Below are positions 45,597 to 58,523 of a DNA stretch of 64,000 nucleotides, in pieces. Below the pieces are notes generated by a model. The model was not told the DNA's origin, searched no databases, and saw only the letters and a list, made by a program, of their open reading frames with translations. Source of the DNA: Candidatus Latescibacterota bacterium (lineage in GTDB: Bacteria; Latescibacterota; UBA2968; UBA8231); the NCBI GenBank assembly GCA_965223905.1, contig CBDCXV010000002.1, positions 160,001 through 224,000 of the forward strand, in the 5' to 3' direction. Every line of letters starts with the position of its first letter. The first letter of the stretch is position 1. Made by a program: the position numbers and the translations under genes.

Positions 45597-46553
45597 CTAC
45601 GGCATGGAAAGCTTTCTTGTTCCTATCACTTCTACAGAAGTTCCTTCCTGCTCGAAGGCCGGGGGTGGATCTTCGGAATGTGGATCTCCGGAATAATATT
45701 GAGACCAGCGAAGTTCGTACTGGTCCCGATCCATCAGCGTAATGTCGTCCGTTTCACCCTCGTTGCCTTCATCGAGTCCGTATCCAAAGGAGACGCCGCC
45801 CAAATCAGATAGGATATAGCGGTTGTGGAGCTGCTCGCCTCCTTGTTTCTGGCGCAACCTGCGCACCCGGACTTGCCTTTCCTCGGGGACACATCGGGGA
45901 AGCCTCCTCTCGCACTCTTCCCGAAAAAACTCCTCCGTTCCCGTATGATCCGCCGCAGTATGTACCTCAATGCACTTCGGCATCCCGCCGGGACGCTGGC
46001 GAATCATTGCTTCAAGGAAGGCTTCAAAGGGACGCCGGTAACGAGGCTTCTCGGGCCCAAAATAAGGGTCGACGAAAATCACAATCGAGCTGCAGCGGAG
46101 TAAAGAAGCCACAGCCTCGGCCATGTCTGAAGCTTTCCTCGGCACGGTGAGCCCACGCTGCACCGCCCAATGTTCTGTAGCGCTGTCATCCAGGTCGCTC
46201 TCCGTCAGCACCTGAGCGTGGCTGTTCGGGTTGGTTCGGGCAAGGATAGCGTGGAAAGGCCGCTCGTCGTGCTCGCGCTCGGCGTTCTCTCGCCAACTTG
46301 TGGAATCATCCCACTGAACATTGCTCCGCCGAACCATTCGTTCTGATAGCCGGGCGAGGAGTTCCACGAGTCGGGTTTGAGCTAAATCATCGGTAGTTTC
46401 AATGGCGTCCCACACGAGTCTTTTCCATCGCTTTGGGTACCGGGAGACAACTCTTCCCTGGCCAAACTCGAAACTTTGCATGTAATGGCGGCAATCACGC
46501 CGATCCGTCCAGCCCGCTACCAATTGGGGTTCCAGTGCATACTCGTAAATCAC
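45597..46553 (-). CDS. Uncharacterised protein with C-terminal PLD-like (MIT_C-type) putative nuclease domain
   Basis: 'IFVDPYF' and 'LHNRYILSDLGGVSFGYGLD' motifs; starts 3 nt after the ATPase stop. Confidence 0.6.
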   Translation of the reverse strand: MIYEYALEPQLVAGWTDRRDCRHYMQSFEFGQGRVVSRYPKRWKRLVWDAIETTDDLAQTRLVELLARLSERMVRRSNVQWDDSTSWRENAEREHDERPFHAILARTNPNSHAQVLTESDLDDSATEHWAVQRGLTVPRKASDMAEAVASLLRCSSIVIFVDPYFGPEKPRYRRPFEAFLEAMIRQRPGGMPKCIEVHTAADHTGTEEFFREECERRLPRCVPEERQVRVRRLRQKQGGEQLHNRYILSDLGGVSFGYGLDEGNEGETDDITLMDRDQYELRWSQYYSGDPHSEDPPPAFEQEGTSVEVIGTRKLSMP

Positions 46554-46556
46554 GCT

Positions 46557-48389
46557 TCAGAACAGTTCCTTCGAGCGCTCGGGGAAGAAGCCTTCGGGCC
46601 ATGGTCGCTCGAACTCGCCGTCGGCCGTCACCGGGATGTGGAGAATCTCGGTATCCCCTCGCCCGGGCTGGACGTAAAGGACGGAGACCTGCTCCGGGTG
46701 GACTTCGGGGAGGCCCTTTGGAAGCTCGCCATCGGTAGTTTCCCGGATCCGCCGCAGGATGCGCAACAACAGGTGTTCGCTGTGAGTCTCGATGAGGAGG
46801 GTGTTGCCGCTCCCGCCAAGGGCCGATTCGATAAAGACATCACCCAGCTCGGCCTGAAGCGCCGGGTGCAGGTGAATCTCGGGCTGCTCGATCGCCAGGA
46901 GCTTCTTTTGCCAAGCATAGGCGGAGACCAGCACCGGGAGCACTTGGCTGACTCCGATGCCGACATCGCGGTGGCTCACGGGAGTGCCGGTGCGTTTGTC
47001 GATGAGAACGAGATCCTGAAGTACTTCGGGCCGTGCCTCGACCAGTTCTTCGGCCCAGCGTTCAGACAGGGCCTCCTCGTCGCTCGCCGCAGCCACGAGC
47101 TCCTCGATCTCGGGGATGATGTCGTCCGGGTTTTCCGCGTTGTACCCGGCGACTTGCTCGGAAACTTCATCCGCCAGCCTCGCCAGTTCAGGTTCCCCGT
47201 CCCCCTGCCGTCTTCGGAGAAGGGAAGCAGCGAGATCGTAAAGCGCCTTGTGAAGTTTGGACGGAAGCTCCCTTGAGACTACTGAAGCGGGCAGCAGGTC
47301 GCGCACTTCGAGCTGGTAGGGTGTCTTCAGGCGGTCCGGGTTGCCAAGCCACCTGTTCACCCGCTGTCGGACATCCTCGTTGGTGCGCACCACGTCCCAG
47401 GCATAGCCGCCCCCTGCGAACCAATTGGGGTCATGATGTTGTGAGAAAGCCAGATGGCGAGGCGGGTACGACCTCAGCGGACCGAGGTACTGGAGTTGGC
47501 GTATCTCGTTCTCAAGCACCGTGACGATTACCTCGACGAGCTCAGTGAACGCCAGGGCCAGAAACCGCTGGGCAGGGGATGAAAGATCCTCCTGTCCCCG
47601 TCCGCGAGAAGTGATGTCACCCCAGCCTTCCGCATCCTCCCCGATCCGGGGGAACAGGCCGCTGCTCCTGGCGGCAATGTCGGGGACCAGGGCGTCGATC
47701 TCCTTGCGGAGGTCGTCGACCAATTCCCCCTCACGCATTTCCTGGGTGGGTGTCACCCGCTTCAGAACCTCTGGAAGGAGCTCGCGGAATACTGGATGGC
47801 CGGAGTCGAACCGATCCAGGCGCAGGAGCCCGCCCGGCCGTGTGCTCATGGAGAGCAGCGGTGTGCCGTCCACCTCCAGCGCGAAGCGCTCGAGAAGTGG
47901 ACCGCTCTCCCGGCCGAACCCGCGAGCCCGGTCCCCTGACCGGGTCCGGTGATCGCTCGTGATCCCTTCCCCGATCCCCAGTTCCACCGCTATCTCGCGA
48001 GCCCGCTGCAGAAGCTCGGCCGCGCGTTCGGGACTCCGACTCGGGTATCCGTAGGTTTTTGAAAAAGCACCCACCCGCAAAAGCTCCGCCACGCGTTCGG
48101 TGAGGCGCCCCGGATCGAGTTCGAAACCCAGCTCGACCCGGCGGTCTCGGTCGCGCCGGTGCACGTATTGGAGAAAACCTCCGAGGTCTATGGTCTCTCC
48201 ACCGATCCGGGGCCGGTGGGTGTCGAGGTCTCCGGTCTCGATGGCGTGGTGGGCGAGTGCCAGGGCGTGCAGCACGCTCGACTTACCGGCGCTGTTGGCC
48301 CCATAGATCAGTGTGATCGGCCGCAGCGGTATCCTCTGGCTTGCGCCGAATGCCTTGAAGTTGGCGATGCGGAAAGCGGTGAGGTTCAA
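46557..48389 (-). CDS. ABC/AAA_21-type ATPase with DUF3696-like C-terminus
   Basis: NFKAF..ITLIYGANSAGKSS, YLGPLR, DVGIGVSQVLPV, IEQPEIHLHP, ETHSEH, WPEGFF. TTG start with gggaga RBS. Confidence 0.9.
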   Translation of the reverse strand: MNLTAFRIANFKAFGASQRIPLRPITLIYGANSAGKSSVLHALALAHHAIETGDLDTHRPRIGGETIDLGGFLQYVHRRDRDRRVELGFELDPGRLTERVAELLRVGAFSKTYGYPSRSPERAAELLQRAREIAVELGIGEGITSDHRTRSGDRARGFGRESGPLLERFALEVDGTPLLSMSTRPGGLLRLDRFDSGHPVFRELLPEVLKRVTPTQEMREGELVDDLRKEIDALVPDIAARSSGLFPRIGEDAEGWGDITSRGRGQEDLSSPAQRFLALAFTELVEVIVTVLENEIRQLQYLGPLRSYPPRHLAFSQHHDPNWFAGGGYAWDVVRTNEDVRQRVNRWLGNPDRLKTPYQLEVRDLLPASVVSRELPSKLHKALYDLAASLLRRRQGDGEPELARLADEVSEQVAGYNAENPDDIIPEIEELVAAASDEEALSERWAEELVEARPEVLQDLVLIDKRTGTPVSHRDVGIGVSQVLPVLVSAYAWQKKLLAIEQPEIHLHPALQAELGDVFIESALGGSGNTLLIETHSEHLLLRILRRIRETTDGELPKGLPEVHPEQVSVLYVQPGRGDTEILHIPVTADGEFERPWPEGFFPERSKELF

Positions 48390-48479
48390 TTCCGGTCTCC
48401 CGCAGGAGTCGCCATATCCGCGGTCATCATAGTGTTCCTTTTTTCTACCGCTCGAACTGCTCGAATTCGCTTGCCGCGT

Positions 48480-48670
48480 GGGAAATCCCTTCAAGGCAAA
48501 GGCGATCGATCAGGTCAAGGGAAGTCGAAGTCCATTCGTCGTCCTGGTGCTGCTGGTAGGTCCGGAAGGTCAGCTTTGCCGGCGCAGCAGATCGCCGTTA
48601 GTATCTCGATTGATGTGGGGAAGTACGCACCGAGTGGTCTCGGCATGGACTCGTCAAACAACAGCTTCAT
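48480..48670 (-). pseudogene. DUF5615/VapC45-like PIN toxin remnant
   Basis: MKLLFDESMPRPL.. overlaps the DUF433 stop; a frameshifted 'NGDLLRR' follows, then the reading decays. Confidence 0.65.
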
Positions 48671-48887
48671 CCGGGTCCCCGGTCAGCGCCACCTTCGCCG
48701 CTTTGAGCACCGCAATCGCCTGGTCGCGTGACACCGTCGGATAGCTGTCTAGGAAGTCATCGAGGCGATCCCCTGCTTCCAGGTGTTCGATCAGGATACG
48801 TATGGGGATCCTGGTTCCGGGAAACACCGGGGTTCCGCCGAGAATGCCCGGATATCTACCGATAACTTTGTCGTTCATTTGATTCAC
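48654..48887 (-). CDS. DUF433 antitoxin
   Basis: PGILGGTPVFPGTRIPI..L...LEAG..LDDFL..YPTV. Confidence 0.92.
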   Translation of the reverse strand: MNQMNDKVIGRYPGILGGTPVFPGTRIPIRILIEHLEAGDRLDDFLDSYPTVSRDQAIAVLKAAKVALTGDPDEAVV

Positions 48888-48917
48888 CTTAGTTGTTCAA
48901 TTGGCACTTCGGGGCTG

Positions 48918-50126
48918 TTACCGATTTTTTGTGGAATATTTGGCAGGAGCGGTGAGTGTGCCCGAGAAGGCACGGTGCAAGATGCCGATGAACAGTGAAC
49001 TAATTCTGTCATGATTTGATCCCGTCAGATTCAGAATCTCCTTTGTCGCCTGTACCTGCATGGAGAATTCCTGCTGAAGTTCGAATGGCGGCACTGGAAT
49101 TTGGAGGGCCTTTAATCTGACGCCAGTCAAATGCGAGAAAGTCATTTTGGAGGCAGTGTCCCTTAATGCTCCGATATTTGCCAGTCGCCAGAGCAGAAAT
49201 ACGATATACTCAGGAGTCGCGGCATTTTGATAAGGACGCACCCTATGAAGAGCTTTCTGGAAGTAGCACTCCGGCAACTCATCGTTCCAGATCGCGCTGC
49301 GGCCCACTTCCCCGCCCTCACAAATTAGAATATCTCCCCTCCGAAGCCTGAACTCTTCACGGTCTGAGTCATTGAAGTCCATCTGGAGAACTTCCTGTAA
49401 ATCGATCCGATCCCAATAGACGTTTGCGTTTCGGAGGTAAGGGCGGGGATCCTTCCCAGTCTGCTGTTTCTGATCGAGCATTTTGCCGAGTCGAGATTCA
49501 CAAATCATGTCAAAACGTTTAATTGGCCAGCCCATCGGATTCGTTGCCGGGTCGCCGAACATCTTGATGAAAAGTGCAGGGAGGATGTGCCCGGCTTTGG
49601 CGTCGGCCTCCGCGCGGAGGCGACGGAGGCGGTAGGCTTGGTCGAGGATTTCAACGATGCGTCGTTGTTCGGAAAGCGGTGGAAGAGGGATTTCCATTTC
49701 CTTGATGTCGTTGTCGGAAACCGCCGGGTAATTCGCGCCTCTGACGCGTTCTGACAACACAGCGACAAAATCACGTGTGATCGTGAGATAAAACAAGAAG
49801 CGAGGTTCTACAACGGCATTATTTGCTCGTAGAACGCAAAAACCAGTTGAAGCAATTTGGCCATCGAGCTGGGCCGGAACCATAGCGACGGCGTTGAGGT
49901 TCGGACGTACCGTCGACACCAGGATGTCATCTTTTCGAATGTTTTTTCGTGCACGGCTCGGAGCATCAGCCCCTAACATGGTTTGATGTTCTGCAATTGT
50001 CTTATGGATACGGTCGATTCCGGCGATGTCAACGTAATTGAACTCGCCGGAAATCTCGCGTCGAGGATCGCATTGCTCAGTGGGTTCGCAGACGTCACTG
50101 ATAGTTGCGATGTCCCACCCCATCAC
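48918..50126 (-). CDS. hsdS: Type I R-M specificity subunit
   Basis: Two TRDs, IPLPPLSEQRRIVEILD, MFGDP, IPVPPFELQQEF; lower GC. Confidence 0.95.
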   Translation of the reverse strand: MMGWDIATISDVCEPTEQCDPRREISGEFNYVDIAGIDRIHKTIAEHQTMLGADAPSRARKNIRKDDILVSTVRPNLNAVAMVPAQLDGQIASTGFCVLRANNAVVEPRFLFYLTITRDFVAVLSERVRGANYPAVSDNDIKEMEIPLPPLSEQRRIVEILDQAYRLRRLRAEADAKAGHILPALFIKMFGDPATNPMGWPIKRFDMICESRLGKMLDQKQQTGKDPRPYLRNANVYWDRIDLQEVLQMDFNDSDREEFRLRRGDILICEGGEVGRSAIWNDELPECYFQKALHRVRPYQNAATPEYIVFLLWRLANIGALRDTASKMTFSHLTGVRLKALQIPVPPFELQQEFSMQVQATKEILNLTGSNHDRISSLFIGILHRAFSGTLTAPAKYSTKNR

Positions 50127-50521
50127 GCCCCCTCCATCTCTTCCAACTTCCCCCGTAACTGTTCAAGCAACGCCTCGACAAGCCCGAGCGCCGCTTTGCG
50201 ATAGATCGGCTCGGTACTCGCATCCACACCCCCATACCGGAACTCGACGGCATACGGCGTGTACACGGCCAGCTCTCGAAAAGCCGTCATGTCGACAGCC
50301 CGCGCGGCGAGCAGATCCACCAACCCCTCGATGTTGTGGGTAAGCGGGTAGGTCTCTCCGAGCAGTGCGAGCCAGGCCTTGAAGGATTTCTCGGCGGCCT
50401 GCTGCACGTGAAATCCGAAAACTTCGTCGGAGATTTCGTCCGAGCGGCACATGAATCGAAGTGCTTCGACATCGCGCTCGGCCGCATCGAGCAACATCCT
50501 GGCGCACTTAGGGTCGCTCAT
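50123..50521 (-). CDS. HEPN domain protein
   Basis: FHVQQAAEKSFKAWL..THNI..L, YAVEFRY. Confidence 0.88.
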   Translation of the reverse strand: MSDPKCARMLLDAAERDVEALRFMCRSDEISDEVFGFHVQQAAEKSFKAWLALLGETYPLTHNIEGLVDLLAARAVDMTAFRELAVYTPYAVEFRYGGVDASTEPIYRKAALGLVEALLEQLRGKLEEMEGA

Positions 50522-50843
50522 AAAGCACCCGCCCTTCCCGCAGTGCCCGCGCCAACACATGGTTGAGGGAGTCGCGCCAGTAGTCCACGTCATCTCGAGA
50601 GTAGACAAGGACGTCGGCTGCGACGGGAAAACCCGCCAGCGCGTGGTAGAGTCTGACCATCTCTTTGTGGCGGCTTCGTTCCGGACCGAACGGCTCGGCT
50701 TCCAAGACCACCAGATCGACGTCCGATTCCTCTCGCTCGTCGCCCCGGCCACGGGAGCCAAAGAGGATCACCTGCTCGGGATCGACCTCGTCGACGATGG
50801 CCTGAACCATCCGGTCGATGAGGGTGTCGGTGATCCGGGTCAT
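50508..50843 (-). CDS. Minimal nucleotidyltransferase (MNT)
   Basis: PEQVILFGSRGRGD....SDVDLVV...EGRVLYE. Confidence 0.92.
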   Translation of the reverse strand: MTRITDTLIDRMVQAIVDEVDPEQVILFGSRGRGDEREESDVDLVVLEAEPFGPERSRHKEMVRLYHALAGFPVAADVLVYSRDDVDYWRDSLNHVLARALREGRVLYERP

Positions 50844-52486
50844 TGCTCCACCTCTTCGAGCAGTTTCTCCAGCCCGGCGGTAATCTCCCGCTCGATCGCC
50901 AGCACCTCGCGGATCAGCTCCGCGGGATCCTCGTCCGGAACCGGCTCGGCAACGCGGGGCTTGTAGCGGGAGGCGGCGAGGTTGAAGTCGTTCTCGACGA
51001 GGGTCTCGAACGAGGCCCACCAGCAGCGGGGTTCGTCGCTGCCCGCGTCGAGCACGGCGCCGGCCTCCTCGCCGGGTGGTTTCTCGAAGCGCGATTCCTT
51101 GTAATCGTTCCAGGCCGACAGTAGCCCGGGGATGTCGTTCTCCCCCGGTGTCTCGGGACGGCCGCCTCCCTGGATCTTGTCGGGGTCGTAGCCGTCGTTG
51201 CGGATCTCGTAGAACCACACCTGCTTCGTCGCCGGACGGCCTTCTTCCGGCTCCGTTGCCGGGCGCCGCAGGACGAGCACGGAGGTCTTGACGCCGGCGT
51301 ACGGTTTGAACACGCCGGCCGGCAGCGATACCACCGCCTGCAGCTCGTACTCCCGCAGGAGCTTCTCGCGCAGCTCCTTGTGAGCTCTCGTCGAGCCGAA
51401 GAGCGCGCCCTCGGGCACGACCACGGCGCAACGTCCCCCCGGCGCCAGGGAGCGCAGCATCAGTGCGATGAACAACAGCTCGCTCTTTCTCGATTTTGTT
51501 GGCAGATCCTGGCGAATTGAGTCCCTGGGGATCTGGCCGGCAAAAGGCGGGTTCGAGAGGATCACCGCGTAGCGCCGGTTCAGGTCGTCCTCGGTGAGTC
51601 CGCTCATCTCGGAGAGTACGTTGGCGCGCTTGAGGCGGGCATGGCGGATCCCGTGGAGCACGAGATTCATGACGGAGATCCGCATCATCTGGCGCGATAC
51701 GTCGGTGCCGTACATCGATGCCTCGAGCCGGCTCCAGTCGGGAATCCTTTCCCCCGGTCCCTTCCGGTAGGTCTGGAGATTGGGGATCTCCTTCTTCGCC
51801 TCCTCGAGCGTCTGCCCCCGCTTCTCGAGCCAGTCCTCGCCGTAGACCGGCACTTCCTGAATCTCCTCGCTGTAGCGGGCGAGGATGTGATCGACGACGT
51901 CGATCAGGAAACCGGCCGTGCCGCAGGCCGGGTCGTACACGGTGTCGCCCAGGTCGGGACCGGTCATCTCGACCATGAAGGCGCGGATCTGGCGCGGGGT
52001 GCGGAACTGGCCGTTCAGCGCCGACTGTCCGAGATGGGTGAGCAGGTATTCGAAGATGTCGCCCTTGATGTCGGGCCCGAGCTTGCGGAAGTCGATGGAG
52101 TCGAACATGTCGATCACCTGCTTGAGCACGTTCGGATCGACGATCTCGAGCACGGCGTCGCGAAAGTACTCTGCCACCTGCGGATCGTCCTTGACCAGCG
52201 ACGCCATGTACGGGAAGACCTCGTCGCGGACGAAGTTGCGCAGATCCTCTCCGCTCTTGAAGCGCCACTTGGACCAGCGGAAGCGCTCGGCCTGCGCGGG
52301 GAAGAGGAGGGCGCGGTTCCCGGCGCCGAGCCGGCCTTGGAGCTCGCGGGTGGTTTCCTCCTCGTCGAGGAGTTTCAGGTAGATGAGGTAGGAGATCTGC
52401 TCGATGTAGGTGACGGGATTGGTCACGCCACCGGCCCACAGGATGTCGGTGATCTGGTCGAGTTGGCGCCGCAGTGTCTGGTCCAT
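50840..52486 (-). CDS. hsdM: Type I R-M N6-adenine methyltransferase
   Basis: IEQISYL, GQFRTPR, DPACGTAGFL, NPPF, LP.GVFKPYAGVKT. Confidence 0.96.
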   Translation of the reverse strand: MDQTLRRQLDQITDILWAGGVTNPVTYIEQISYLIYLKLLDEEETTRELQGRLGAGNRALLFPAQAERFRWSKWRFKSGEDLRNFVRDEVFPYMASLVKDDPQVAEYFRDAVLEIVDPNVLKQVIDMFDSIDFRKLGPDIKGDIFEYLLTHLGQSALNGQFRTPRQIRAFMVEMTGPDLGDTVYDPACGTAGFLIDVVDHILARYSEEIQEVPVYGEDWLEKRGQTLEEAKKEIPNLQTYRKGPGERIPDWSRLEASMYGTDVSRQMMRISVMNLVLHGIRHARLKRANVLSEMSGLTEDDLNRRYAVILSNPPFAGQIPRDSIRQDLPTKSRKSELLFIALMLRSLAPGGRCAVVVPEGALFGSTRAHKELREKLLREYELQAVVSLPAGVFKPYAGVKTSVLVLRRPATEPEEGRPATKQVWFYEIRNDGYDPDKIQGGGRPETPGENDIPGLLSAWNDYKESRFEKPPGEEAGAVLDAGSDEPRCWWASFETLVENDFNLAASRYKPRVAEPVPDEDPAELIREVLAIEREITAGLEKLLEEVEQ

Positions 52487-52496
52487 CCCGTTCCTT

Positions 52497-55218
52497 TCAG
52501 CTCGCAGTCCTGAAAACGTCCTCGTCCAGCTGTCTCAACAACCTGCCTGAGCCCCTCCTCACCGAACAGCTCTACCCCCCTGCCGGCGGCGTCGAGAATC
52601 GACAGCGGCGGCTCGAACAGGTCGTTCAGGCGCACCCGGCCGGTGGCGATTCCCCGGTTTTTGAGCAGGCAGAGGTACTCCGCTTGCTGCGGGGTGAGGG
52701 CGCGCACTACGAGCCAGGCCCGGAAGGCCTCTTCCAGCTTCTCCTCGCGGCTCTTGATGCGCAGCCGCCCGAGCGCGGCGCGGATGAAGTCGACGAAGTT
52801 GCCTCCCGGGTCGCGGTAGGCGCGGCGCAGGTTCTCCTGGTTGAAGTAGTGCTCGGGCTGGTTGAGGCGGCGGGCAAGCTCCTCCTCTTCGGTCCGGCTC
52901 GAGATGCTCTTCGTCGCGCACCTTGCGGAGGAGCGGATCGTCGGCCGCCCGGGAGCGAATCGTCTCCACCCAGCGGGTTACGTACTCCTCCTTGTCGACG
53001 CGTTCTCCCTCGGGGCCGACCTCGACGTAGGTGACCGCCTCCAACCACTCGTCCTCCAGCCCGAGCTCGACGAGATCCCGCGTCTCCGGCCCTGTCCTGG
53101 GGCCGCTCGGGGCATGTCCTCCCGAAGTGCCGGTGAACACGTCGGTATCGCTGTCATTGAAGTACTGGTGGTTCCTGAAGAAGTCGTAGATGACAAATTT
53201 CCGCTTGTCGATATGCGGCGCAGTGCGCGTGCCCCGGCCTCGCATCTGCTGGTAGAGAATGGGGCTTCGCACCCGCCGGCAGAGCACGAGGTGGAGGATC
53301 TCGCGGCAGTCGAAGCCGGTGTCGAGCATTCCAACGCTCACCGCGACCATGGGCAAGGTTTCGGTCTTGAACCGGCGAATCAGGGTGTCCGGGTCGGCCA
53401 CGTCGGAGGTGATGACCTCGGCGTAGCGGCCCTTGTATTCGGGTGCAGCTCGTTCAAATACTGTGCCAGTCTCGCCGCGTGGTGCTTGGTGATGGCGAAG
53501 ACGATCGCCTTGCCCGGGCCCGGGTCCTGCCCGGGTGCCAGTTCCGCATAGCTCTCCCAGGCAAGCCGGTCGAACTCCTCCATCATCAGGCGGTTGGTCT
53601 CTTCGTTGGTCCAGCGCCGTTCGAACTCGACTGGGTCGTAGTGCTCGTCGTCGAGATCGGCCCCCTCGGCGAGGATCTCGGTGATGCCCGTGGCGAAGCG
53701 GTAGGGCACGAGGTATTCCTCGTTGAAGGCATCCTTTATTGAATAGGAGACGTCCGGTTTGCCCGGCTCGCACTGGTAGAAGTCGTAGGTGTTGCGCTCG
53801 ATGAAGCTTGCCGGCGTGGCCGTGAGTCCGATATGGAGGGCGTCGAATCGCGTGAGCGCTCCCTGCCAGGCGCCGTAGATGGAGCGGTGGCATTCGTCGG
53901 CGATGACGATGTCGAAGTAGCCGGCGGTATACTCGTCGACGCGGCCGATCATGGTCTGCAGCAGGGTAACGGTGATCTGCTGCTCCTGGCGCGCCATGCC
54001 GGGCCGCAGCCAGTAGCTCGAATACGCTCCCAAGACGTCCTGGATGGCTTCCAGGGCCTGCTTGGCGAGCTGGTCGCGGTCCGCCAGGAAGAGAATTCGC
54101 TCGGCCCAGCCTGCCTGCAGGAGTCGCTTCAGGTAGAGGCAGATGAGGTCGGTCTTGCCGGTACCGGTCGGCAGCTCGATCAGGAAGCGCCGCCTGCCGA
54201 GCTCCAGCGCGTGGTCGAGCGCCTGCATCGCGTCGGCCTGGTAGGGCCGCACCGTGCGCGTCTCCCCCTGGCGGATGTAGTGCTCCGGGATTTCGACGGT
54301 GGCGAGCGGCCTGCGCGTCTCCCGCGCCTCCACCATGCGCTCGAGGTCCCGCTGCGAGAAGAAGCCGGCGATGGGGCGGGCGTCGTCGTTCTGGTAGTCC
54401 CAGAAGTAGGTCAGCTCACCGTTGGTGAGGAAGATGAAGGGCGCTTCGAGCGCCTTGGCGTAGGGCAGGGCCTGTTGCTTCGCCACGTAGGGGTTGATGG
54501 CGTTCCTCTTGGCCTCGATGACGGCGAGCGGGCGGCCGCGCTGGTCGTAGAGGACGTAGTCGGCGCGGCCGGTTGAAGACTCGTCATCCGCGGCTTCGAG
54601 CTGGCAGACGAACTCGCCGATGACGCGGAGGTCCCCTTCTGCGCCTGGGTCGAAGACGAGGTCCTCGTAAGCCGGATCCGGATTGAGCGGCTGCAGCCGG
54701 ATTTCGCGATGGCTCCAGCTGTCCCCATCCGGTTCAGCTTCTTTCGTACTGCTGTATTTCTTGACGGAGAACTCGCCTCCGAGCGCCGGATCGGTGCAGC
54801 CGCGGTGCCAGACGAGGACGAGCTTTCCCTCCCTGGTCCCGCCGCGGTCCGTCCGAAACAGACAGTAGGAACCGTCGGGGATGGCCGGCTCCATAGAGTG
54901 CCCTTCGATGCGGGCAACGAAGTGGTCGCGGGTGAGCCGGACGCGGCCCGGCACCGCCATCCAGCCGATTTCGTCATGCTCGGTTCCGACGGTCTGGTCC
55001 GGGCTGAATTTTCCTGCCGCGGCAACGAGACCGTAGACCGGGGCGTGCGTTTCGAATGGCCTCGCTCCCACGCGGTCGACGATTCCGGCGCGACCGGGTG
55101 CGGAAGCCGCCTGGACCTCGGTACCGACCATCGACTGGTCGTCCGCGTCCCAGCCGGACTGCGCCAACAGTTCGTCGATAACTATGCGGGCGTCCGCCTC
55201 GTTTTCGCGCCGGTTCAT
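52497..55218 (-). CDS. hsdR: Type I restriction subunit (EcoEI-like) with inserted S24 peptidase; three apparent single-base frameshifts (~53445, ~52895, ~52533)
   Basis: GRADYVL..AVIEAKR, RPYQ, PTGTGKT, DECHRS, LTATP, MLDTGFD, QMRGRGTR. Confidence 0.9.
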
Positions 55219-55252
55219 CTTGTTCTTCCTCGTCCATGGGAAATTAGATGAA

Positions 55253-55268
55253 TGCAAAGCGCGTGCCA
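55253..55268 (-). promoter_or_regulatory. Sigma54 -24/-12 promoter upstream of hsdR
   Basis: Minus strand TGGCACG-CGCT-TTGCA, an exact match to TGGCACG-N4-TTGCW. Begins immediately after the activator stop and ends 34 nt before the hsdR ATG. Confidence 0.88.
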
Positions 55269-56777
55269 TCATTCGCCCACCCCGTAGCGTTTCATCCAGT
55301 TGGTGAGGGTCTGGTAGCTGGGCAGGCCGACGAGGTCGGCCGCCCTGGTCTTGTTGCCCTGCGCCTCGTCCAGGGCCCTCTCCAGGTAGTGGCGGGCCAC
55401 GGATGCCAGAATTCCGGGCAGGTCGAGACCGTCGCCGAGGGGCTTGCCAAGCACCGATCCCTTTTCGGTTTCGCCCGCGGGCAGGAGGGCGTCGCGAAGG
55501 TCCTCCGTCCTCAGCGTGGCTTCCGGGGTCCAGATCGCCGCGCGTCCCAGGGTGTTCTGCAGTTCGCGGACATTTCCGGGCCACGGGTGCGCGAGAAGAA
55601 GGTTTCTCGCTCCGGAAGAAAGTTCCTTCTCCACGAATCCCGGCTGCCCCCGCCCCTCCCGGTTCACGAGGGCGAGAATGTGATCGATCAGGATCGGGAG
55701 ATCGTCGCGCCGGTCCCGTAACGGGGGCAGTGGCAGCACCGCCACCGCCAGGCGGTGGAAGAGGTCTTCGCGAAAGGCGCCTGTCGACACTTCGGACAGG
55801 AGAGAGCGGTTGGTGGCGGCGATCATTCGCACGTCCACCTTGCGGCTGCGCGAGGTGCCGACCGGAAGCACCTCCCCCTCCTGGAGCGCGCGCAGCAGCT
55901 TCACCTGCGCGGGCTTGGGAAGCTCTCCCACCTCGTCGAGGAAGAGGGAGCCCCCGGATGCTTCCTCGAAATGGCCTTTGCGGTCCTTCACAGCCCCGGT
56001 GAAAGCCCCCTTTACGTGACCGAACAGCTCGGATTCGACGATCTCCGGAGGAATGGCGCCGCAGTTGACGGCCACGAAAGGCTTGTCGCGCCGCGGACTG
56101 GTGCGATGGATGGCGCGGGCGAGAAGCTCCTTGCCGGTACCTGTCTCCCCTTCGATCAGCACCGGCACGGAGCGCGGGGCGACCCGGCGCGCCCGCAGGA
56201 TCACGCGCTGCATGGCCTGGCTCCGGTGCAGGATCTCCTCGAATTCCGGCGCCTCCGGGGAGAGACCGGCGCTGAGGCGCTCGAGCTCCTCGTCCGGGCG
56301 GCGCAGCAGATCCGGAAGGAAGTCTGCTGAAATATCGAAGGGGACGGACACCGTGCTGACGCCGTGCTGCTTCGAGGACTCGATCAGCTCCGCGGGAAAG
56401 CGCGTCTTCGCGAGGATGATCCATACCGCGGCCATGGCCGGCGTGCCCGGGCTCAGGTGGAAAGTGAGCTCAGTGTCTCTGGGGCCGCCGGCCAAGGCCG
56501 TCTCGCAGGCGCGGACCGCGGCGACGTAGATCTCGCCGAATTGGGTAGGACCGGTGAGCTCTTCGTGGACCAGGTGAAGGGTGGGGCCTTCACATCGCTT
56601 TTCGAGCCACTGCCGGTAGGGGCGAACGGCGCCGGCCTCGTGGTCGAACAGCAGATAGGCGTCATCGAACTCGCGCTCCATCAGGGCCTGGGCAACCGGC
56701 CCGGCTCCGGTTGTCGGCTCCTCTTCGGGAGCGTCCAGGTCCGTATTTCCAATCCAGGTGATGAGGATTCTGCGCAT
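55269..56777 (-). CDS. RtcR-like sigma54 enhancer-binding protein (CARF-like N-domain, AAA+, Fis HTH)
   Basis: N-terminal '[10 protein letters not shown]...[12 protein letters not shown]'; [50 protein letters not shown]. Confidence 0.93.
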
Positions 56778-56784
56778 GGGAACA

Positions 56785-56814
56785 ATGCTAACAAGAAAAA
56801 TTGTGATTCCGCAA
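56785..56814 (-). promoter_or_regulatory. Possible sigma70 promoter giving a leaderless activator mRNA
   Basis: TTGCGG-N18-TAGCAT with extended TG, 7 nt before ATG 56777; no SD. Confidence 0.4.
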
Positions 56815-57195
56815 GTTTGTTTATTCTTGATGTGGGGCGTGTGGCAGTAGGTAAGGTCTCTGACAGGGTTAGGCTACCAATTTGGCGAAATACACCGATT
56901 CTGGGCGGAGCACAGTCAGGTTCTACCCTGTAAGGGGAAAGAAGCCACTCACCACCTCGAAATGTCCGGATTGTCTTCCAATGGTGCTCGAGAAAGGGGG
57001 TGCGGAGGTTACAAGGACACGGAAATAGCCGTTATTTTGGCTCGAAATGGGCAATACATGGCTTTATAGCCGAAATATAAAATAATAATAGAAGAATTTA
57101 TCGCGATATAACTATTTATTTTTTGTTGAATCAAGGTATCTTTGATGGCAGGTCCCCAAACCTGGTGCCACAACCTGGAAAGGAGCCACCTCCTC

Positions 57196-58227
57196 ATGAA
57201 AATCGACCCCGAGAGCCTTCGATGCCTTCGCCAGAAAAAAAAGCTGTCACGCGCCCGGCTTGCCGAACGGTCTGGAATCGCGGTACGAACCATTCAGCGT
57301 CTGGAAAACGAACCGCAGCGATGTCAGAAATCGCGAGAGGACACGCTGAACCGGCTAGCCAAGGCACTCGATGTCGAAACGGATGTGCTTACCGGCCAGT
57401 CACCACTTCCCGAGTTTGATAAGCCCCCTGCCTCTGCCCCCAAGGGGGTCCAGATCGGCGCGCAGGTCGCTCCTTTGACCCGGCTCTTCTACGACCTCGT
57501 TAAGCGCCGATACGGCGTCAGCGTCACTGAGATCATCAACATGGCGCCGCTTTTCTTCGCGCTTCTGGCCGAGGGAAGTCTTGCTTGGAGGCGCATAAAA
57601 ATAGAGGAGGCAGAAGAAGCGAAAGGTCATTTGGAGGGGATCGAAGGGTTCTGGATTGGGAGCCTTGTATCTGCCTCAATAGTCATGGAAGAAGGGATTG
57701 GGGCGGAAATTGATTCCATCGAAAAAGCCGACCTTTTCGGAGAGCATCTCTTCAGGGTCGAATCTAGTTGGATGGATGATTTGTTCGACCCCTCCGCCAC
57801 CAACCCGTTCGCAAGCCATTTGCGTGGGTTGAAAGATGAACTCGCCAAACCCGGCGTCGTCGACGTGGGGGAGGGCGCTCTCGATTTCAGATCGTCGCTA
57901 AAATTCCCCGACTACGACATTTGCCGTGACGAACTCGACGACATGGCCAACGGTTCTTTCAACGCAAAGAAGGCTCTTGAAACTGGCTACGCGCGGCTCT
58001 CCGAAATTCCCGAGGAACTGATGGGAGAAGACGCCGGCGAGGAGCGCGCGAAATGGCTCGAAGACAGACTGCCGGATCAGTTTCAGAAAATCCTGAAGGA
58101 TGAGAAGGTTGGAGACGAGATCGTAGAAATCGTGGCAAAAGACCCAGAAGGCACTTGGAAAAGGGTCTTGGAAAAAGCGGGTGCCAATGAGGCGGATACC
58201 AGTAGTAAGGTGGGAGACAACCAATGA
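57196..58227 (+). CDS. XRE-family HTH protein with large unknown C-terminal domain
   Basis: LRCLRQKKKLSRARLAERSGIAVRTIQRLE..TLNRLAKALDV; aaggag upstream. Confidence 0.85.
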   Translation: MKIDPESLRCLRQKKKLSRARLAERSGIAVRTIQRLENEPQRCQKSREDTLNRLAKALDVETDVLTGQSPLPEFDKPPASAPKGVQIGAQVAPLTRLFYDLVKRRYGVSVTEIINMAPLFFALLAEGSLAWRRIKIEEAEEAKGHLEGIEGFWIGSLVSASIVMEEGIGAEIDSIEKADLFGEHLFRVESSWMDDLFDPSATNPFASHLRGLKDELAKPGVVDVGEGALDFRSSLKFPDYDICRDELDDMANGSFNAKKALETGYARLSEIPEELMGEDAGEERAKWLEDRLPDQFQKILKDEKVGDEIVEIVAKDPEGTWKRVLEKAGANEADTSSKVGDNQ

Positions 58228-58523
58228 GCATCGTCTATACACAACATGCCGAGACGCGCATGCAGCAGCGGAGCATTCGCGAAAAGGATATTCCACTCAT
58301 CCTCGCCTTGGGAACGCAAGTTGAGGACGAGACCTGGATTTTGCTCAGAAGAGATGTTGCGCGGGAAATCGAGATTCGCAAACGGGAGATCCAAAAGCTG
58401 AAACGGCTTGAAAACTGCAAGGTCGTCATGCTCGGCCGACACGTCATCACTGTCTATCCCTCACGGCCTGCGGATCAGAAACGAACACTACGCCGCGCCA
58501 GGCAGAACGGAATGGTGAAATGA
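58224..58523 (+). CDS. DUF4258-like small basic protein (putative RelE-fold toxin)
   Basis: YTQHAETRMQQRSI...VITVY; ATGA overlap with the XRE gene. Confidence 0.7.
   Translation: MSIVYTQHAETRMQQRSIREKDIPLILALGTQVEDETWILLRRDVAREIEIRKREIQKLKRLENCKVVMLGRHVITVYPSRPADQKRTLRRARQNGMVK

Follow-up and report, generated by a model that had tools for sequence, protein, structure and literature searches.

A LexA-like S24 module within the nuclease domain of a type I restriction HsdR subunit and at the C-terminus of other defence enzymes: a candidate built-in switch

Background

It has long been asked how cells avoid being killed by the restriction and defence nucleases that they make themselves. In type I systems, HsdR subunits of types IA and IB are removed by ClpXP during restriction alleviation (PMC12707154), and for EcoKI (type IA) and EcoAI (type IB) this proteolysis protects the host at unmodified sites (PMC12707154, PMC11109961). 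As described for EcoKI, alleviation targets single complexes in the act of translocation and does not belong to the SOS functions (PMC4231737, PMC11109961). According to PMC4231737 the EcoKI degron for ClpX was still unidentified, and its authors asked why alleviation had not been seen in other classes of R-M enzymes.

LexA, UmuD and lambda cI (MEROPS S24, PF00717) have in common a Ser-Lys dyad carried by GxSM and (T/S)-V-K motifs, cleavage at Ala(or Cys)-Gly some 35-40 residues ahead of the Ser, and an L-x-P-x-N strand. The P1/P1' pair of UmuD is Cys-Gly, and Neher is said to have described in 2003 that self-cleavage of LexA exposes motifs for ClpXP. In the CapH/CapP pair a separate metallopeptidase cleaves a transcriptional repressor and thereby controls CBASS after DNA damage. 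LexA itself has A84-G85 as its P1/P1' pair (PMC9926225), and its self-cleavage has been described to expose motifs for both ClpXP and Lon (10.1101/2020.07.07.191791). With respect to transcription, the association of RtcR-like activators with R-M systems was already reported by Makarova et al. 2014 (PMC4012209), who predicted sigma-54-dependent, ligand-gated control of restriction. Here we describe a locus in a 64 kb stretch of a Candidatus Latescibacterota genome (hereafter the window) in which an S24 domain is part of HsdR itself.

Results and discussion

An S24 domain lies within the HsdR nuclease domain

The type I hsdR gene of the window (52497-55218, minus strand) is EcoAI/EcoEI-like, with Pfam matches to HSDR_N, ResIII, SWI2_SNF2 and DEAD. 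Its ATG at 55218, with the ribosome-binding site GAGGA 8 nt upstream, opens a product beginning MNRRENEADAR; the homologues also begin there and all residues are numbered from it. The EcoAI/FtnUII family was the top NCBIfam match, and the frameshift-shortened 629-aa reading used as query scored 190.1 bits against the NF046051 equivalog cut-off of 550; we therefore place the gene near that family without calling it an equivalog. Like EcoAI/EcoEI (type IB) HsdR, it has an N-terminal PD-(D/E)xK nuclease and an SF2 helicase/translocase domain 1 at 53809-54255 (minus strand; ResIII, E 2.5e-29), and hsdM and hsdS belong to the same operon. Of the motor and the EcoEI_R_C tail typical of that family, ResIII and DEAD were found in the window gene, Helicase_C and EcoEI_R_C in the intact homologue P0122; in the window the latter two lie behind frameshifts. 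EcoEI_R_C is likewise present in the intact homologue P0004 (906 aa, 97% identical to the window hsdR).

Unlike EcoAI/EcoEI HsdR, the window protein carries a 180-residue S24 insert between nuclease strands β1 and β2. On the minus strand, 55108-55218 encodes the N-terminal part of the PD-(D/E)xK domain, with helix α1 and strand β1 (residues 1-37, including E7, D9, R11, D15 and E34); next come the S24 module and a linker (residues 38-216) at 54571-55107, which by comparison with S24-less relatives occupy the β1-β2 loop. The catalytic core, from D220 in GRADYVL to E235-x-K237 in VIEAKR, lies at 54508-54561. Between β1 and the D...ExK motif there are about 180 residues in the window HsdR versus 8-35 in S24-less relatives, which occur at about 68% identity in cultured Pseudomonadota and cyanobacteria. 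Peptidase_S24 (PF00717) was matched at 54607-55041 (minus strand; E 9.5e-8; 32.2 bits, with the gathering score at 23.3), at identical coordinates in the scan of the window and of the whole genome, and HSDR_N (E 1.2e-12) follows directly, covering positions 114-196 of the 198-position profile. Profile matches and alignment confirm the placement of the S24 domain within the predicted PD-(D/E)xK fold, between the two halves of HSDR_N.

The residues expected of a self-cleaving protease are all encoded within the insert, again on the minus strand. Conservation marks Ala68-Gly69 in VAAAGKF (55012-55017) as the candidate scissile bond; Ser108 in GHSMEP (codon 54895-54897), the predicted nucleophile, stands 40 residues further on and aligns with the GxSM serine of LexA, and Lys153 in SVKKY (codon 54760-54762), the predicted general base, aligns with the LexA TVK lysine. 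The LQPLNP motif forms residues 175-180 of the hsdR product. A first-pass annotation of the same DNA had proposed an S24 domain inside the HsdR nuclease domain from these motifs, and the Ala-Gly site (VAAAG), the GHSMEP serine, the SVKKY lysine, LQPLNP, GRADYVL and IEAKR were all recovered, on the minus strand. Its domain is indeed in frame; the size given, about 150 aa, needs correction to an insert of about 180 residues between conserved nuclease elements with an S24 core of about 145.

The insert belongs to an intact gene family

The window hsdR is broken by three single-base frameshifts near 53444, 52892 and 52533, all far downstream of the insert and absent from the first-pass annotation. 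Mapped relative to locus L001 and read on the minus strand, these are one base missing in a C run at 53440-53446 (the extra base is present in X3 and X9 contigs, and X1 depth is without it), one extra C at 52889-52895 (absent from X1, X5 and X9 contigs) and one extra A at 52530-52536 (absent from X1, X3, X5 and X9 contigs, in part of the depth). In addition, 4 of the 6 closest database relatives of the window hsdR are truncated, each at another place. Together these lesions could be read as signs that the insert is a chimera made in assembly, or a functionless relic decaying in a gene already dead. This is extremely unlikely, and for the family we reject it. The insert is carried by all 121 aligned homologues and by 26 independent species-representative genome loci, and contigs from four sequencing runs, independent of one another, bridge its junctions; record 32 of run X9 covers 54540-55300 with both junctions, and X3 records 15 and 16 and X1 record 8 contain one junction each. 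The insert is thus neither a chance match nor a chimera, the latter being a doubt that the first-pass annotation had itself raised. Moreover, 22 of 24 evaluable loci have intact length, a genome of the same genus has a 912-aa open frame, and the dN/dS of the insert is only about 0.15.

Median dN/dS differed along the protein: the nuclease core had 0.05, the motor 0.09, the S24 core 0.14 and the insert taken as a whole 0.17. Ser108 and Lys153 are without exception in the HsdR homologues (121/121), in modules carried by other proteins (112/112, 40-50% identity) and at genome loci (62/62). Among the HsdR homologues Ala68 is found in 116/121, the other five having Gly at P1, and Gly69 in 120/121, which agrees with the earlier expectation that dyad and Ala-Gly site would be conserved. 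Across the 112 modules on other proteins, 99 carry Ala and 12 carry Cys at position 68, and Gly occupies position 69 in 102; the remaining 10 have Thr or Ser at P1', as did 5 of 20 inspected sites that the regular expression had missed. Ala or Cys followed by Gly are the choices of LexA and UmuD. The nuclease residues are equally constant (E7 and K237 in 120/121 homologues; E34, D220 and E235 in 121/121), and E7 and E34 are conserved in the S24-less relatives too. The pattern suggests that catalytic competence of the module is under selection.

The same module is found on many other defence enzymes

Modules of the same kind are attached to Type ISP/IIG, Type III, AlwI and McrBC enzymes, to SLFN-g3 (Schlafen-type) and DruE-like helicases, and further to HNH, PLD and HsdS proteins and two other HsdR types. 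In 108 of 115 cases the module ends within 15 residues of the protein C-terminus. PF00717 was also matched by 44 of 47 larger module-bearing proteins. At least 580 loci were counted among species-representative genomes, and about a thousand protein clusters at 50% identity match at E<=1e-10, with some HsdR-only matches counted in. Cultured carriers include Halomonadaceae, Marinobacter, Arenibacter and Mucilaginibacter, and the genome of the window itself encodes two further modules.

In the tree, all eight sampled HsdR-insert modules form one clade (support 100/99), and the alignments place them in a variable surface loop; this shows, as far as trees and alignments can, a single insertion into the β1-β2 loop of the HsdR nuclease. 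Modules did not otherwise cluster by partner type, and the second HsdR in the genome of the window bears a module of the Type ISP clade. The module is shown by these comparisons to belong to a distinct, mobile S24 clade whose modules otherwise occupy the very C-terminus of many DNA-targeting defence enzymes. Because the modules are shuffled among partners, an action that does not depend on the partner, such as exposure of a terminus or removal of a domain that dimerises or tethers, is easier to reconcile with these data than an inhibitory interface shaped by co-evolution. The idea of the first-pass annotation that cleavage cuts the nuclease domain does not hold as a general principle: elsewhere, including the two other kinds of HsdR, the same module is C-terminal, where cleavage would only detach the module. 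A full-text literature search returned no description of an S24/LexA module in restriction enzymes.

The module is a remote relative of LexA, cI and UmuD

When a profile of the module was compared with the PDB, all 23 matches at E<=1 were LexA, lambda cI or UmuD chains (best E 0.0014); a search of the PDB with the single module sequence gave no matches. With hhalign, the module profile was aligned to LexA of the same genome over 121 columns (95.5% probability, E 1.6e-8), with GxSM, TVK and L-x-P-x-N in register and an ambiguity of one residue at the predicted scissile site. The module shares the dyad, site spacing and strand motif of the classical proteins; unlike theirs, its partners are restriction and defence enzymes and not a DNA-binding repressor domain or a polymerase accessory factor, its self-cleavage is predicted, and in the window it lies in a loop of another domain. 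LexA is separated from the module clade by a very long branch, and two conserved inserts are peculiar to the module: D-P-E-T-G-G precedes the Lys strand, and S-x-K...W-x-H follows it.

The LexA pocket for F203 of RecA comprises six residues as given in the Cory preprint. Only three or four of these map by offset to conserved hydrophobic positions of the module (F100, A102, L135, F/Y150), and the mapping of the two cleavage-strand residues depends on the ambiguous register. At such distance from LexA, responsiveness of the module to RecA-coated ssDNA (RecA*) is not guaranteed. The genome encodes LexA, two recA matches, clpX and rpoN, which speaks for the feasibility of a damage-triggered switch in this host.

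A predicted sigma-54 promoter and an RtcR-like activator precede hsdR

Directly upstream of hsdR lies a gene for a sigma-54-dependent activator (55269-56777, minus strand) with a divergent CARF-like N-terminal domain, an AAA+ sigma-54 interaction domain and a Fis-type HTH (Pfam Sigma54_activat with E 1.2e-68, AAA_lid_14, HTH_8). Its top NCBIfam match was RtcR NF038308 (E 2.6e-100) over residues 39-432, the N-terminal domain included, at 336.8 bits against a cut-off of 650. As the score is below this cut-off and the gene is linked to hsdR and not to rtc genes, we rejected its assignment as true RtcR and call it RtcR-like.

Between the stop codon of the activator gene and the start of hsdR we found TGGCAC-N5-TTGCA at 55253-55268 (minus strand), the only zero-mismatch sigma-54 promoter match in the 64 kb window. 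The activator gene ends 1 nt before it and hsdR starts 35 nt downstream. GGCAC-N5-TTGC recurs at the same place in related loci, with 12 exact pattern matches and four further loci having CGGCAC. Promoter elements, adjoining activator gene and rpoN in the genome together identify this as a predicted sigma-54 promoter, in line with the sigma-54 control put forward earlier for this locus. An activator gene directly upstream of hsdR was present in 12 of 22 evaluable loci with and in 13 of 46 loci without the S24 module.

Domain order and association with R-M genes agree with the RtcR-like CARF/NtrC-AAA+/HTH activators of Makarova et al. 2014 (PMC4012209). A perfect and conserved sigma-54 promoter is mapped here, and the passages of that paper on restriction, RtcR and sigma-54 do not mention an S24 module. 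The earlier suggestion of an undescribed mechanism can hence be kept, within the literature searched, for the S24 domain in restriction enzymes and not for the link between RtcR-like activators and R-M systems, which that paper contains.

Self-cleavage as a candidate off switch

The reading we favour, with about an even chance of being right, is that DNA damage triggers self-cleavage and that this disarms restriction, the probable means being an Ala-rich degron laid bare at a new C-terminus. The module would then be an off switch within HsdR itself and provide restriction alleviation in cis. hsdR would be transcribed only once the RtcR-like CARF/sigma-54 activator senses a ligand linked to infection or stress. 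When RecA-coated ssDNA builds up, due to DNA damage or to attack of the enzyme on unmodified host DNA, the S24 domain would adopt its cleavable form, and Ser108 and Lys153 would cut the Ala68-Gly69 bond, parting residues 1-68, which hold helix α1 and strand β1, from the D220/E235/K237 core. Cleavage alone may not inactivate the enzyme, since a PD-(D/E)xK domain may well stay folded when one of its surface loops is nicked. The new carboxy-terminus ...L-V-A-A-A would resemble the Ala-rich ends by which ClpXP recognises ssrA-tagged proteins and the N-terminal fragment of LexA, and extraction or degradation of the N-terminal piece would kill the nuclease. Where the module is fused to the C-terminus, the complete enzyme would bear the degron after such a cut, making the module a portable self-destruct tag that works independently of the partner.

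Such an Ala-rich terminus would presumably suit ClpX as in the alleviation of EcoKI and EcoAI. There, a protease working in trans attacks HsdR in translocating complexes only and not as an SOS function (PMC4231737, PMC11109961), whereas here a protease domain is within HsdR; the analogy to EcoKI drawn in the first-pass annotation is loose for the reason that EcoKI alleviation is local and lies outside SOS. As with CapH/CapP, a protease would make a defence system respond to DNA damage; the module differs in being a serine self-cleaving module fused to the effector.

More tentatively, and with somewhat less than an even chance, the tag may have been captured repeatedly by defence enzymes as a RecA-ssDNA-sensing brake on autoimmunity that acts in cis, its self-removal exposing an Ala-rich degron. 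Captures would comprise Type I (at least three separate events), ISP/IIG, III, McrBC, Schlafen-type and DruE-like helicases and HsdS, and the cell would dismantle its own nucleases whenever these or other damage break the chromosome. The position of the tag inside the nuclease of HsdR could then be explained by the need of the C-terminus for assembly, and in combination with CARF/sigma-54 gating an inducible, self-limiting restriction system would result.

Activation, another trigger, or a role without cleavage

The main competing reading is an activation switch, UmuD-like or by release of autoinhibition. Tethered at both ends in the nuclease loop, or attached to the C-terminus of other enzymes, the S24 domain might hold the enzyme inactive until RecA*, arising in phage replication or prophage induction, provokes the cleavage that frees the nuclease, which with the RtcR-like activator would make a two-key ON system. 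Chemistry and conserved dyad would be the same as for the off switch, S24 cleavage activates UmuD, and DNA damage is a cue known to raise defence in the CapH/CapP control of CBASS. Strong purifying selection on the nuclease residues indicates an enzyme meant to cut DNA, and the fold may survive a nick in the loop. In Salmonella, the RtcR signal is reported to depend on RecA and prophage induction (PMC9879122), so that both gates could respond to one event. Nevertheless activation appears unlikely to us. Despite the shuffling of modules, the inhibitory interface would have to suit folds as unrelated as MTase-REase fusions, McrC, HsdS and helicases, LexA and cI, two of the three classical S24 proteins, are inactivated by cleavage, and restriction unleashed on damaged, transiently unmodified host DNA would be self-destructive, unless abortive infection is intended.

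Self-cleavage might also answer to a trigger other than RecA*, as a local fuse and not an SOS sensor; long-lived translocation, stalling on self DNA, ssDNA directly, pH, stress or a phage protein are conceivable. LexA-like proteins can escape RecA control, as IrvR does, but IrvR is the exception among the characterised family members, all others being RecA-dependent as stated in PMC7101444. The targeting of individual translocating complexes in EcoKI alleviation, which is not global (PMC4231737), and the separate, distant clade of the module with inserts of its own fit a local trigger. The host, on the other hand, has recA and lexA, and some RecA-pocket positions are conserved as hydrophobic residues. 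We judge a trigger of this kind quite improbable. Finally, the S24 fold could serve dimerisation, DNA binding or docking to RecA filaments without any cleavage, for example by pairing two HsdR subunits or by recruiting the enzyme to recombination intermediates. Catalytic domains of LexA, cI and UmuD dimerise, and type I cleavage needs two motor subunits. The Cory preprint describes the C-terminal domain of LexA as the dimer interface. That Ser and Lys are absolutely conserved, and small residues kept at P1 and P1', would be difficult to account for if the module did not catalyse, and a role without cleavage is very unlikely in our judgement.

With regard to the off switch, a protease module within the effector, with a defined scissile bond and dyad, makes the question of how cells survive their own nucleases directly testable by point mutants, and the partners of the module span most classes of DNA-targeting defence enzymes. 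If responsive to RecA*, it would tie immune effectors to SOS by a direct connection between proteins and would explain the tolerance of large nuclease arsenals. It may also be of use as a portable tag that is removed or destroyed upon DNA damage.

Other genes of the operon

Downstream of hsdR and on the same strand (minus) follow hsdM (50840-52486; Pfam N6_Mtase with E 3.7e-48, HsdM_N) and hsdS (48918-50126; Methylase_S in two stretches), and the gene order is identical in related loci. Between them, at 50123-50843 (minus strand), an MNT nucleotidyltransferase/HEPN pair is encoded (Pfam Polbeta/NTP_transf_2 and HEPN), which was also found in loci L001, L002, L008, L009 and L020.

An S24 module interrupts the nuclease domain of HsdR

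The hsdR gene (55218 to 52497) belongs to a type I restriction operon on the minus strand. It follows the gene of an RtcR-like sigma-54 activator (56777 to 55269) and precedes hsdM (52486 to 50840) and hsdS (50126 to 48918), all on the minus strand. An MNT nucleotidyltransferase/HEPN pair of toxin-antitoxin-like character lies between hsdM and hsdS on the same strand (50123-50843); the pair was likewise seen at five related loci (L001, L002, L008, L009 and L020). Residues of HsdR were numbered from the ATG at 55218, chosen because the homologues begin there.

The PD-(D/E)xK nuclease begins with a helix and a strand at residues 1-37 (E7, D9, R11, D15, E34) and has its catalytic part at residues 217-237, with D220 in GRADYVL and E235 and K237 in VIEAKR, so that about 180 residues separate the two. 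Pfam assigned residues 60-204 to Peptidase_S24 (E 9.5e-8, 32.2 bits, cut-off 23.3) and picked up HSDR_N directly afterwards, from profile position 114, which confirms, at the coordinates given there, the S24 domain that the first-pass annotation had placed inside the HsdR nuclease. All motifs named there were found: VAAAGKF with the Ala68-Gly69 pair, GHSMEP with Ser108, SVKKY with Lys153, and LQPLNP.

The S24 residues are conserved among HsdR homologues

With residues 1-300 as query, a word-indexed search in which 8000 candidates were scored returned 2195 proteins at E<=0.001. The best 120 of these were 71-99% identical to the query and mostly 905-915 aa long, and 114 of the 120 had a precomputed PF00717 match. 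The S24-bearing proteins go under generic database names (e.g. 'type I restriction enzyme R subunit', 'DEAD/DEAH box helicase family protein', 'hypothetical protein'). The first 330 residues of the best 120 homologues were aligned together with one further homologue, P0122 (121 rows). Ser108 and Lys153 were each present in 121/121 rows and Gly69 in 120/121, and position 68 was Ala in 116/121 and Gly in the remaining five; the dyad and the Ala-Gly pair, on whose conservation the first-pass proposal depended, are thus kept. The nuclease residues D220 and E235 were invariant as well (121/121), and K237 was found in 120/121 rows.

A scan with one genome per species revealed the full insert in 26 loci, and 22 of the 24 loci with enough sequence had an open frame of 900-916 aa, the early stops being those of L019 and L022. 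The region in the window was covered by contigs of four independent sequencing runs, several of which span the insert junctions. The insertion is accordingly not chimeric, a possibility that the earlier annotation had raised. One contig of run X5 joins 55168 to 54569 (window 54569-55168) and skips the 598 nt holding the insert; most likely it comes from an S24-less relative in the same sample, and it could also be a deletion allele.

Selection on the insert was estimated by pairwise Nei-Gojobori dN/dS on 24 sequences, leaving out L019 for its early stop and the truncated L012 and L022. At a dS of about 1.2, which is near saturation, the median dN/dS of the S24 core was 0.14, that of the insert as a whole 0.17 and that of residues 1-37 0.20, compared with 0.05 in the nuclease core and 0.09 in the motor. 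These medians indicate that the insert is under purifying selection, looser than that on the enzyme core.

Insertion site and history of the insert

In close HsdR relatives that lack S24, e.g. P0140 (about 68% identical), the conserved T-E-V strand is joined to G-R-A-D-Y by a loop that is short and varies greatly. This loop is 8 residues long in cyanobacteria and in locus L030, and 27-35 residues long in Pseudomonadota. A tree was built from 72 rows of a 310-residue motor block; 24 of its 25 S24-bearing rows formed one group (support 90/57) with an inner group of 22 rows (support 100/91); L026 stood apart from the others with unstarred support. In the tree of the S24 modules, the eight sampled HsdR inserts, L026 among them, formed one clade with support 100/99. 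Since all eight share this clade, we read the HsdR insert as the probable outcome of a single insertion event. Both trees were midpoint-rooted only, so the direction of change, S24 gain or deletion, is not fixed by them; L030 and L027 look like cases of S24 loss or partial loss.

Hosts of the S24-bearing clade, all of them represented by MAGs, include Latescibacterota, Acidobacteriota, Binatota, Planctomycetota, Pseudomonadota, Spirochaetota, Thermodesulfobacteriota, Schekmanbacteria and one Thermoplasmatota MAG. This wide span of phyla implies that the gene moves horizontally. The 310-residue motor block is identical in a Vicinamibacterales MAG and the (archaeal) Thermoplasmatota MAG (L010 and L011), which points to a very recent transfer or else to misbinning.

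The module is related to LexA and carries a candidate cleavage site

A single-sequence phmmer search of the PDB with the module gave just two chance-level aminotransferase matches (E 0.09). When a 25-row module profile was used instead, 23 PDB chains were obtained at E<=1, all of them LexA, lambda cI or UmuD (best E 0.0014), and GxSM lined up with the nucleophile motif of LexA. An hhalign comparison with the LexA of the same genome gave a probability of 95.5% and an E of 1.6e-8 over 121 columns, aligning Ser, Lys and L-x-P-x-N and, on the cleavage strand, V-A-A on V-A-A. The last match leaves a one-residue ambiguity, the motif pointing to Ala68-Gly69 and the register to Ala67-Ala68. We prefer Ala68-Gly69 as the predicted scissile bond, because the only common alternative to Ala at position 68 in the wider module family is Cys, the residue that precedes Gly at the cleavage site of UmuD.

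LexA itself is cut at A84-G85 with S119 as nucleophile (PMC9926225), and the LexA pocket that takes F203 of RecA is given in 10.1101/2023.10.30.564768 as V79, V82, F111, L113, V146 and V153. By offset from the dyad, the last four of these map to F100 (110/112 modules), A102, L135 (110/112) and F/Y150 of the module, and the remaining two lie on the cleavage strand, where the assignment varies with the register. The mapping is compatible with sensing of RecA-ssDNA filaments (RecA*), but weakly so, because the mapped positions are also core residues.

The same module is attached to many other defence enzymes

When residues 1-300 were searched exhaustively with HMMER against 1.84 billion cluster representatives, 2744 proteins matched at E<=0.001, 1027 of them at E<=1e-10. 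The query was in this case numbered from the upstream ATG at 55269, i.e. 17 higher than the usual residue numbers. Among the best 150 of the 2744 matches there was only one full-length S24-bearing HsdR representative, and most of the others matched in the S24 part only (query residues ~65-225) at 40-50% identity. A near-complete module was present in 115 of the remaining 149 proteins; in 108 of these 115 the protein ended no more than 15 residues from the module, and three of the seven exceptions were HsdR fragments. With the HsdR fragments P0123-P0132 left out of the alignment, the 112 non-HsdR modules had Ser and Lys in 112/112 each and Ala67 in 110/112. Position 68 was Ala in 99 and Cys in 12, and position 69 was Gly in 102, Thr in seven and Ser in three. 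A strict cleavage-site regular expression matched in 31 of 62 loci, and inspection of 20 of the 31 misses revealed 15 x-A-A-G or A-K-A-G, four A-T and one A-S.

The partners were surveyed with Pfam and PADLOC in the 47 module-bearing proteins that are 300 aa or longer, and in further loci. They comprised Type ISP/IIG enzymes (7/47), Schlafen-group-3 helicases (6/47), ResIII helicases (6/47), HNH (4/47), Type III and AlwI endonucleases, McrBC, PLD and HIT-PLD helicases, proteins matching the models DruE, DrmMI, Nhi, AbiO and mad2, one HsdS, and HindI-like HsdRs with a C-terminal module, e.g. at L104. Four S24 matches were found in the genome of the window, namely LexA, the HsdR described here, a second type I HsdR and a DruE-like helicase. 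The second HsdR (1180 aa; L086:4155-7697, minus strand) carries its module C-terminally and adjoins HsdS; the DruE-like DEAD/MZB helicase (1980 aa; L085:5766-11708, minus strand) likewise has a C-terminal module and adjoins a Type IIG-like fragment.

Modules of one partner type were scattered across the module tree. That of the second HsdR sits within the Type ISP group (support 99/98) and that of L104 elsewhere, so that, together with the place of the insert, at least three captures of a module by Type I HsdRs are indicated. On the basis of these comparisons we regard it as established that HsdR contains an S24 module which is catalytically equipped, is kept by selection and is housed in a permissive loop of a nuclease that is conserved elsewhere, and that the same module serves many defence enzymes as a mobile C-terminal appendage.

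A profile scan of species genomes detected at least 580 loci with the module, cultured Halomonadaceae, Marinobacter, Arenibacter and Mucilaginibacter being among the hosts. It was present in four of 40 relatives of the window's genome (E<=1e-10), in one of 72,556 plasmid records and in none of 50,697 phage records. Among cultured strains, Salinicola tamaricis F01 (L129) has the module on a 794-aa Schlafen-type helicase adjoining a phage-type integrase, and in Marinobacter aromaticivorans D15-8P (L106) its carrier is a DruE-like helicase of 1981 aa, after which comes a NERD + SF1 helicase protein of 1686 aa. Proteins of 200-315 aa at L105, L113 and L127, and P0133, consist of a 70-150-residue N-terminal part without family assignment and the S24 module. 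These may be regulators that stand alone, or the insert may derive from them; in the module tree, P0133 and the HsdR insert are sisters.

A full-text literature search, mostly outside subscription journals and supplements, yielded no account of S24 domains attached to restriction or defence enzymes. Term look-ups for S24 or LexA likewise gave none in the defence and restriction-modification papers PMC12707154, PMC12839542, PMC10853773, PMC11090510 and PMC7159879, and supplementary file 4 of PMC4012209 may list S24-bearing loci. S24 self-cleavage, type I restriction, proteolytic alleviation and CARF/sigma-54 gating are known parts; what appears new is how they are combined and how broad the family of S24-tagged enzymes is, and an earlier description is possible.

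Possible consequences of self-cleavage

Self-cleavage at Ala68-Gly69 would leave a new C-terminus on the partner enzyme. For the HsdR piece this predicted end would be L-V-A-A-A, and the corresponding predicted end in the alignment of the wider family is L-(K/R)-A-A-A or L-(K/R)-A-A-C. As the module has kept its sequence while moving among unrelated partners, and is so placed that the new C-terminus would stay on the partner, an effect of the cut that does not depend on the partner is favoured. LexA and cI lose function when cut, and exposure of protease signals by LexA cleavage was reportedly described by Neher in 2003. These precedents favour inactivation over activation of the enzyme, and 10.1101/2020.07.07.191791 names ClpXP and Lon as the proteases whose signals are uncovered in LexA. 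ClpXP also removes HsdR of types IA and IB during alleviation (PMC12707154), and PMC4231737 describes the degron for this removal as still to be identified. The host has recA, lexA and clpX. We therefore give about an even chance to a switch by which DNA damage triggers self-cleavage and disarms restriction. At an estimated contamination of 5.1%, the genome yields recA twice (447 and 437 bits) and clpX twice above cut-off, and the doubled genes are either true duplicates or a sign of a second organism in the bin.

Several points speak against the disarming switch. A nick in the loop need not unfold the nuclease domain, and about 9% of the modules have no Gly at P1'. Alleviation of EcoKI is local and not an SOS function according to PMC4231737 and PMC11109961, and one LexA-like protein, IrvR, is RecA-independent (PMC7101444). 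Activation by the cut, which the first-pass annotation had offered as a UmuD-like alternative, is a reading to which we give a minor share of belief. The same self-cleavage chemistry with a trigger other than RecA* seems unlikely to us. A non-cleaving role of the S24 module is quite improbable next to a Ser-Lys dyad found in every aligned row. That the insert is an artefact is scarcely credible, given its recurrence across loci and runs.

The window's own hsdR copy is frameshifted

Relative to L001, the reference with 93.8% DNA identity over 7.1 kb, the hsdR of the window lacks one base of a C run near 53444 and has two single-base additions, a C near 52892 and an A near 52533. The three frameshifts are confined to the last 950 nt of the gene (52497-53446, minus strand), and there were no indels relative to L001 in the activator gene or hsdM. 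The frame-preserving form was found at all three sites in contigs of other runs; run X1 agrees with the window in part of its depth. Random long-read errors at a uniform rate are an unlikely source, since none are seen in the activator gene, in hsdM or in the two ORFs of 1980 and 1180 aa elsewhere in this genome. The nearest database relatives are broken at differing places, P0002, P0005 and P0007 by frame changes and P0003 by a junction to unrelated HTH-containing sequence; P0004, P0006 and one same-genus genome are intact. This suggests either repeated inactivation of hsdR in the lineage or a local consensus problem. We conclude that the S24-bearing hsdR family is functional and that the allele of the window is probably a recently inactivated copy, a local consensus error being less likely.

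Sigma-54 control and flanking genes

Pfam identified Sigma54_activat, AAA_lid_14 and HTH_8 in the activator, and its best NCBIfam match, below cut-off, was RtcR over residues 39-432, including the N-terminal CARF-like part. The element TGGCACGCGCTTTGCA (promoter at 55253-55268) lies one base past the activator stop codon and is the sole perfect match to TGGCAC-N5-TTGCW in the 64-kb window; at up to two mismatches there were 18 matches vs 20.8 in shuffles, i.e. no excess. The element is kept at the same place in related loci, and rpoN was found in the genome. Neither sigma-70 promoters nor terminators exceeded shuffles at 48700-57200, and an inverted repeat that might serve as activator site was not found in 55200-55800. 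An activator gene lies upstream of hsdR in 12 of 22 evaluable S24-bearing loci and in 13 of 46 S24-less loci; its presence at the latter indicates that sigma-54 control predates the insert and does not depend on it. RtcR-like CARF/NtrC/HTH proteins with restriction-modification systems were reported by Makarova et al. 2014, who proposed ligand-gated, sigma-54-dependent restriction (PMC4012209). The ligand of RtcR is an oligoribonucleotide with a 2',3'-cyclic phosphate end, and in Salmonella the RtcR signal arises by a RecA- and prophage-dependent route (PMC9879122).

Directly downstream of hsdS, the region 45597-48494 (minus strand) encodes a 645-aa AAA_15/AAA_21/DUF3696 ATPase, which PADLOC matched to NsnB, AriA and GajA-like models, followed by a 318-aa ORF without a family match. 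It is probably a second defence system, which would make the region a defence island. ARAGORN called a 91-nt tRNA-Trp at 47790-47880, inside an ORF of this region, and the call is probably false. Upstream of the activator gene, the stretch 56750-58523 has a low GC content of 0.46-0.58 vs ~0.66 and contains, on the plus strand, the gene of an HTH_3 (XRE-type) protein of 361 aa and a DUF4258-like ORF of 99 aa; it is possibly the edge of an acquired island.
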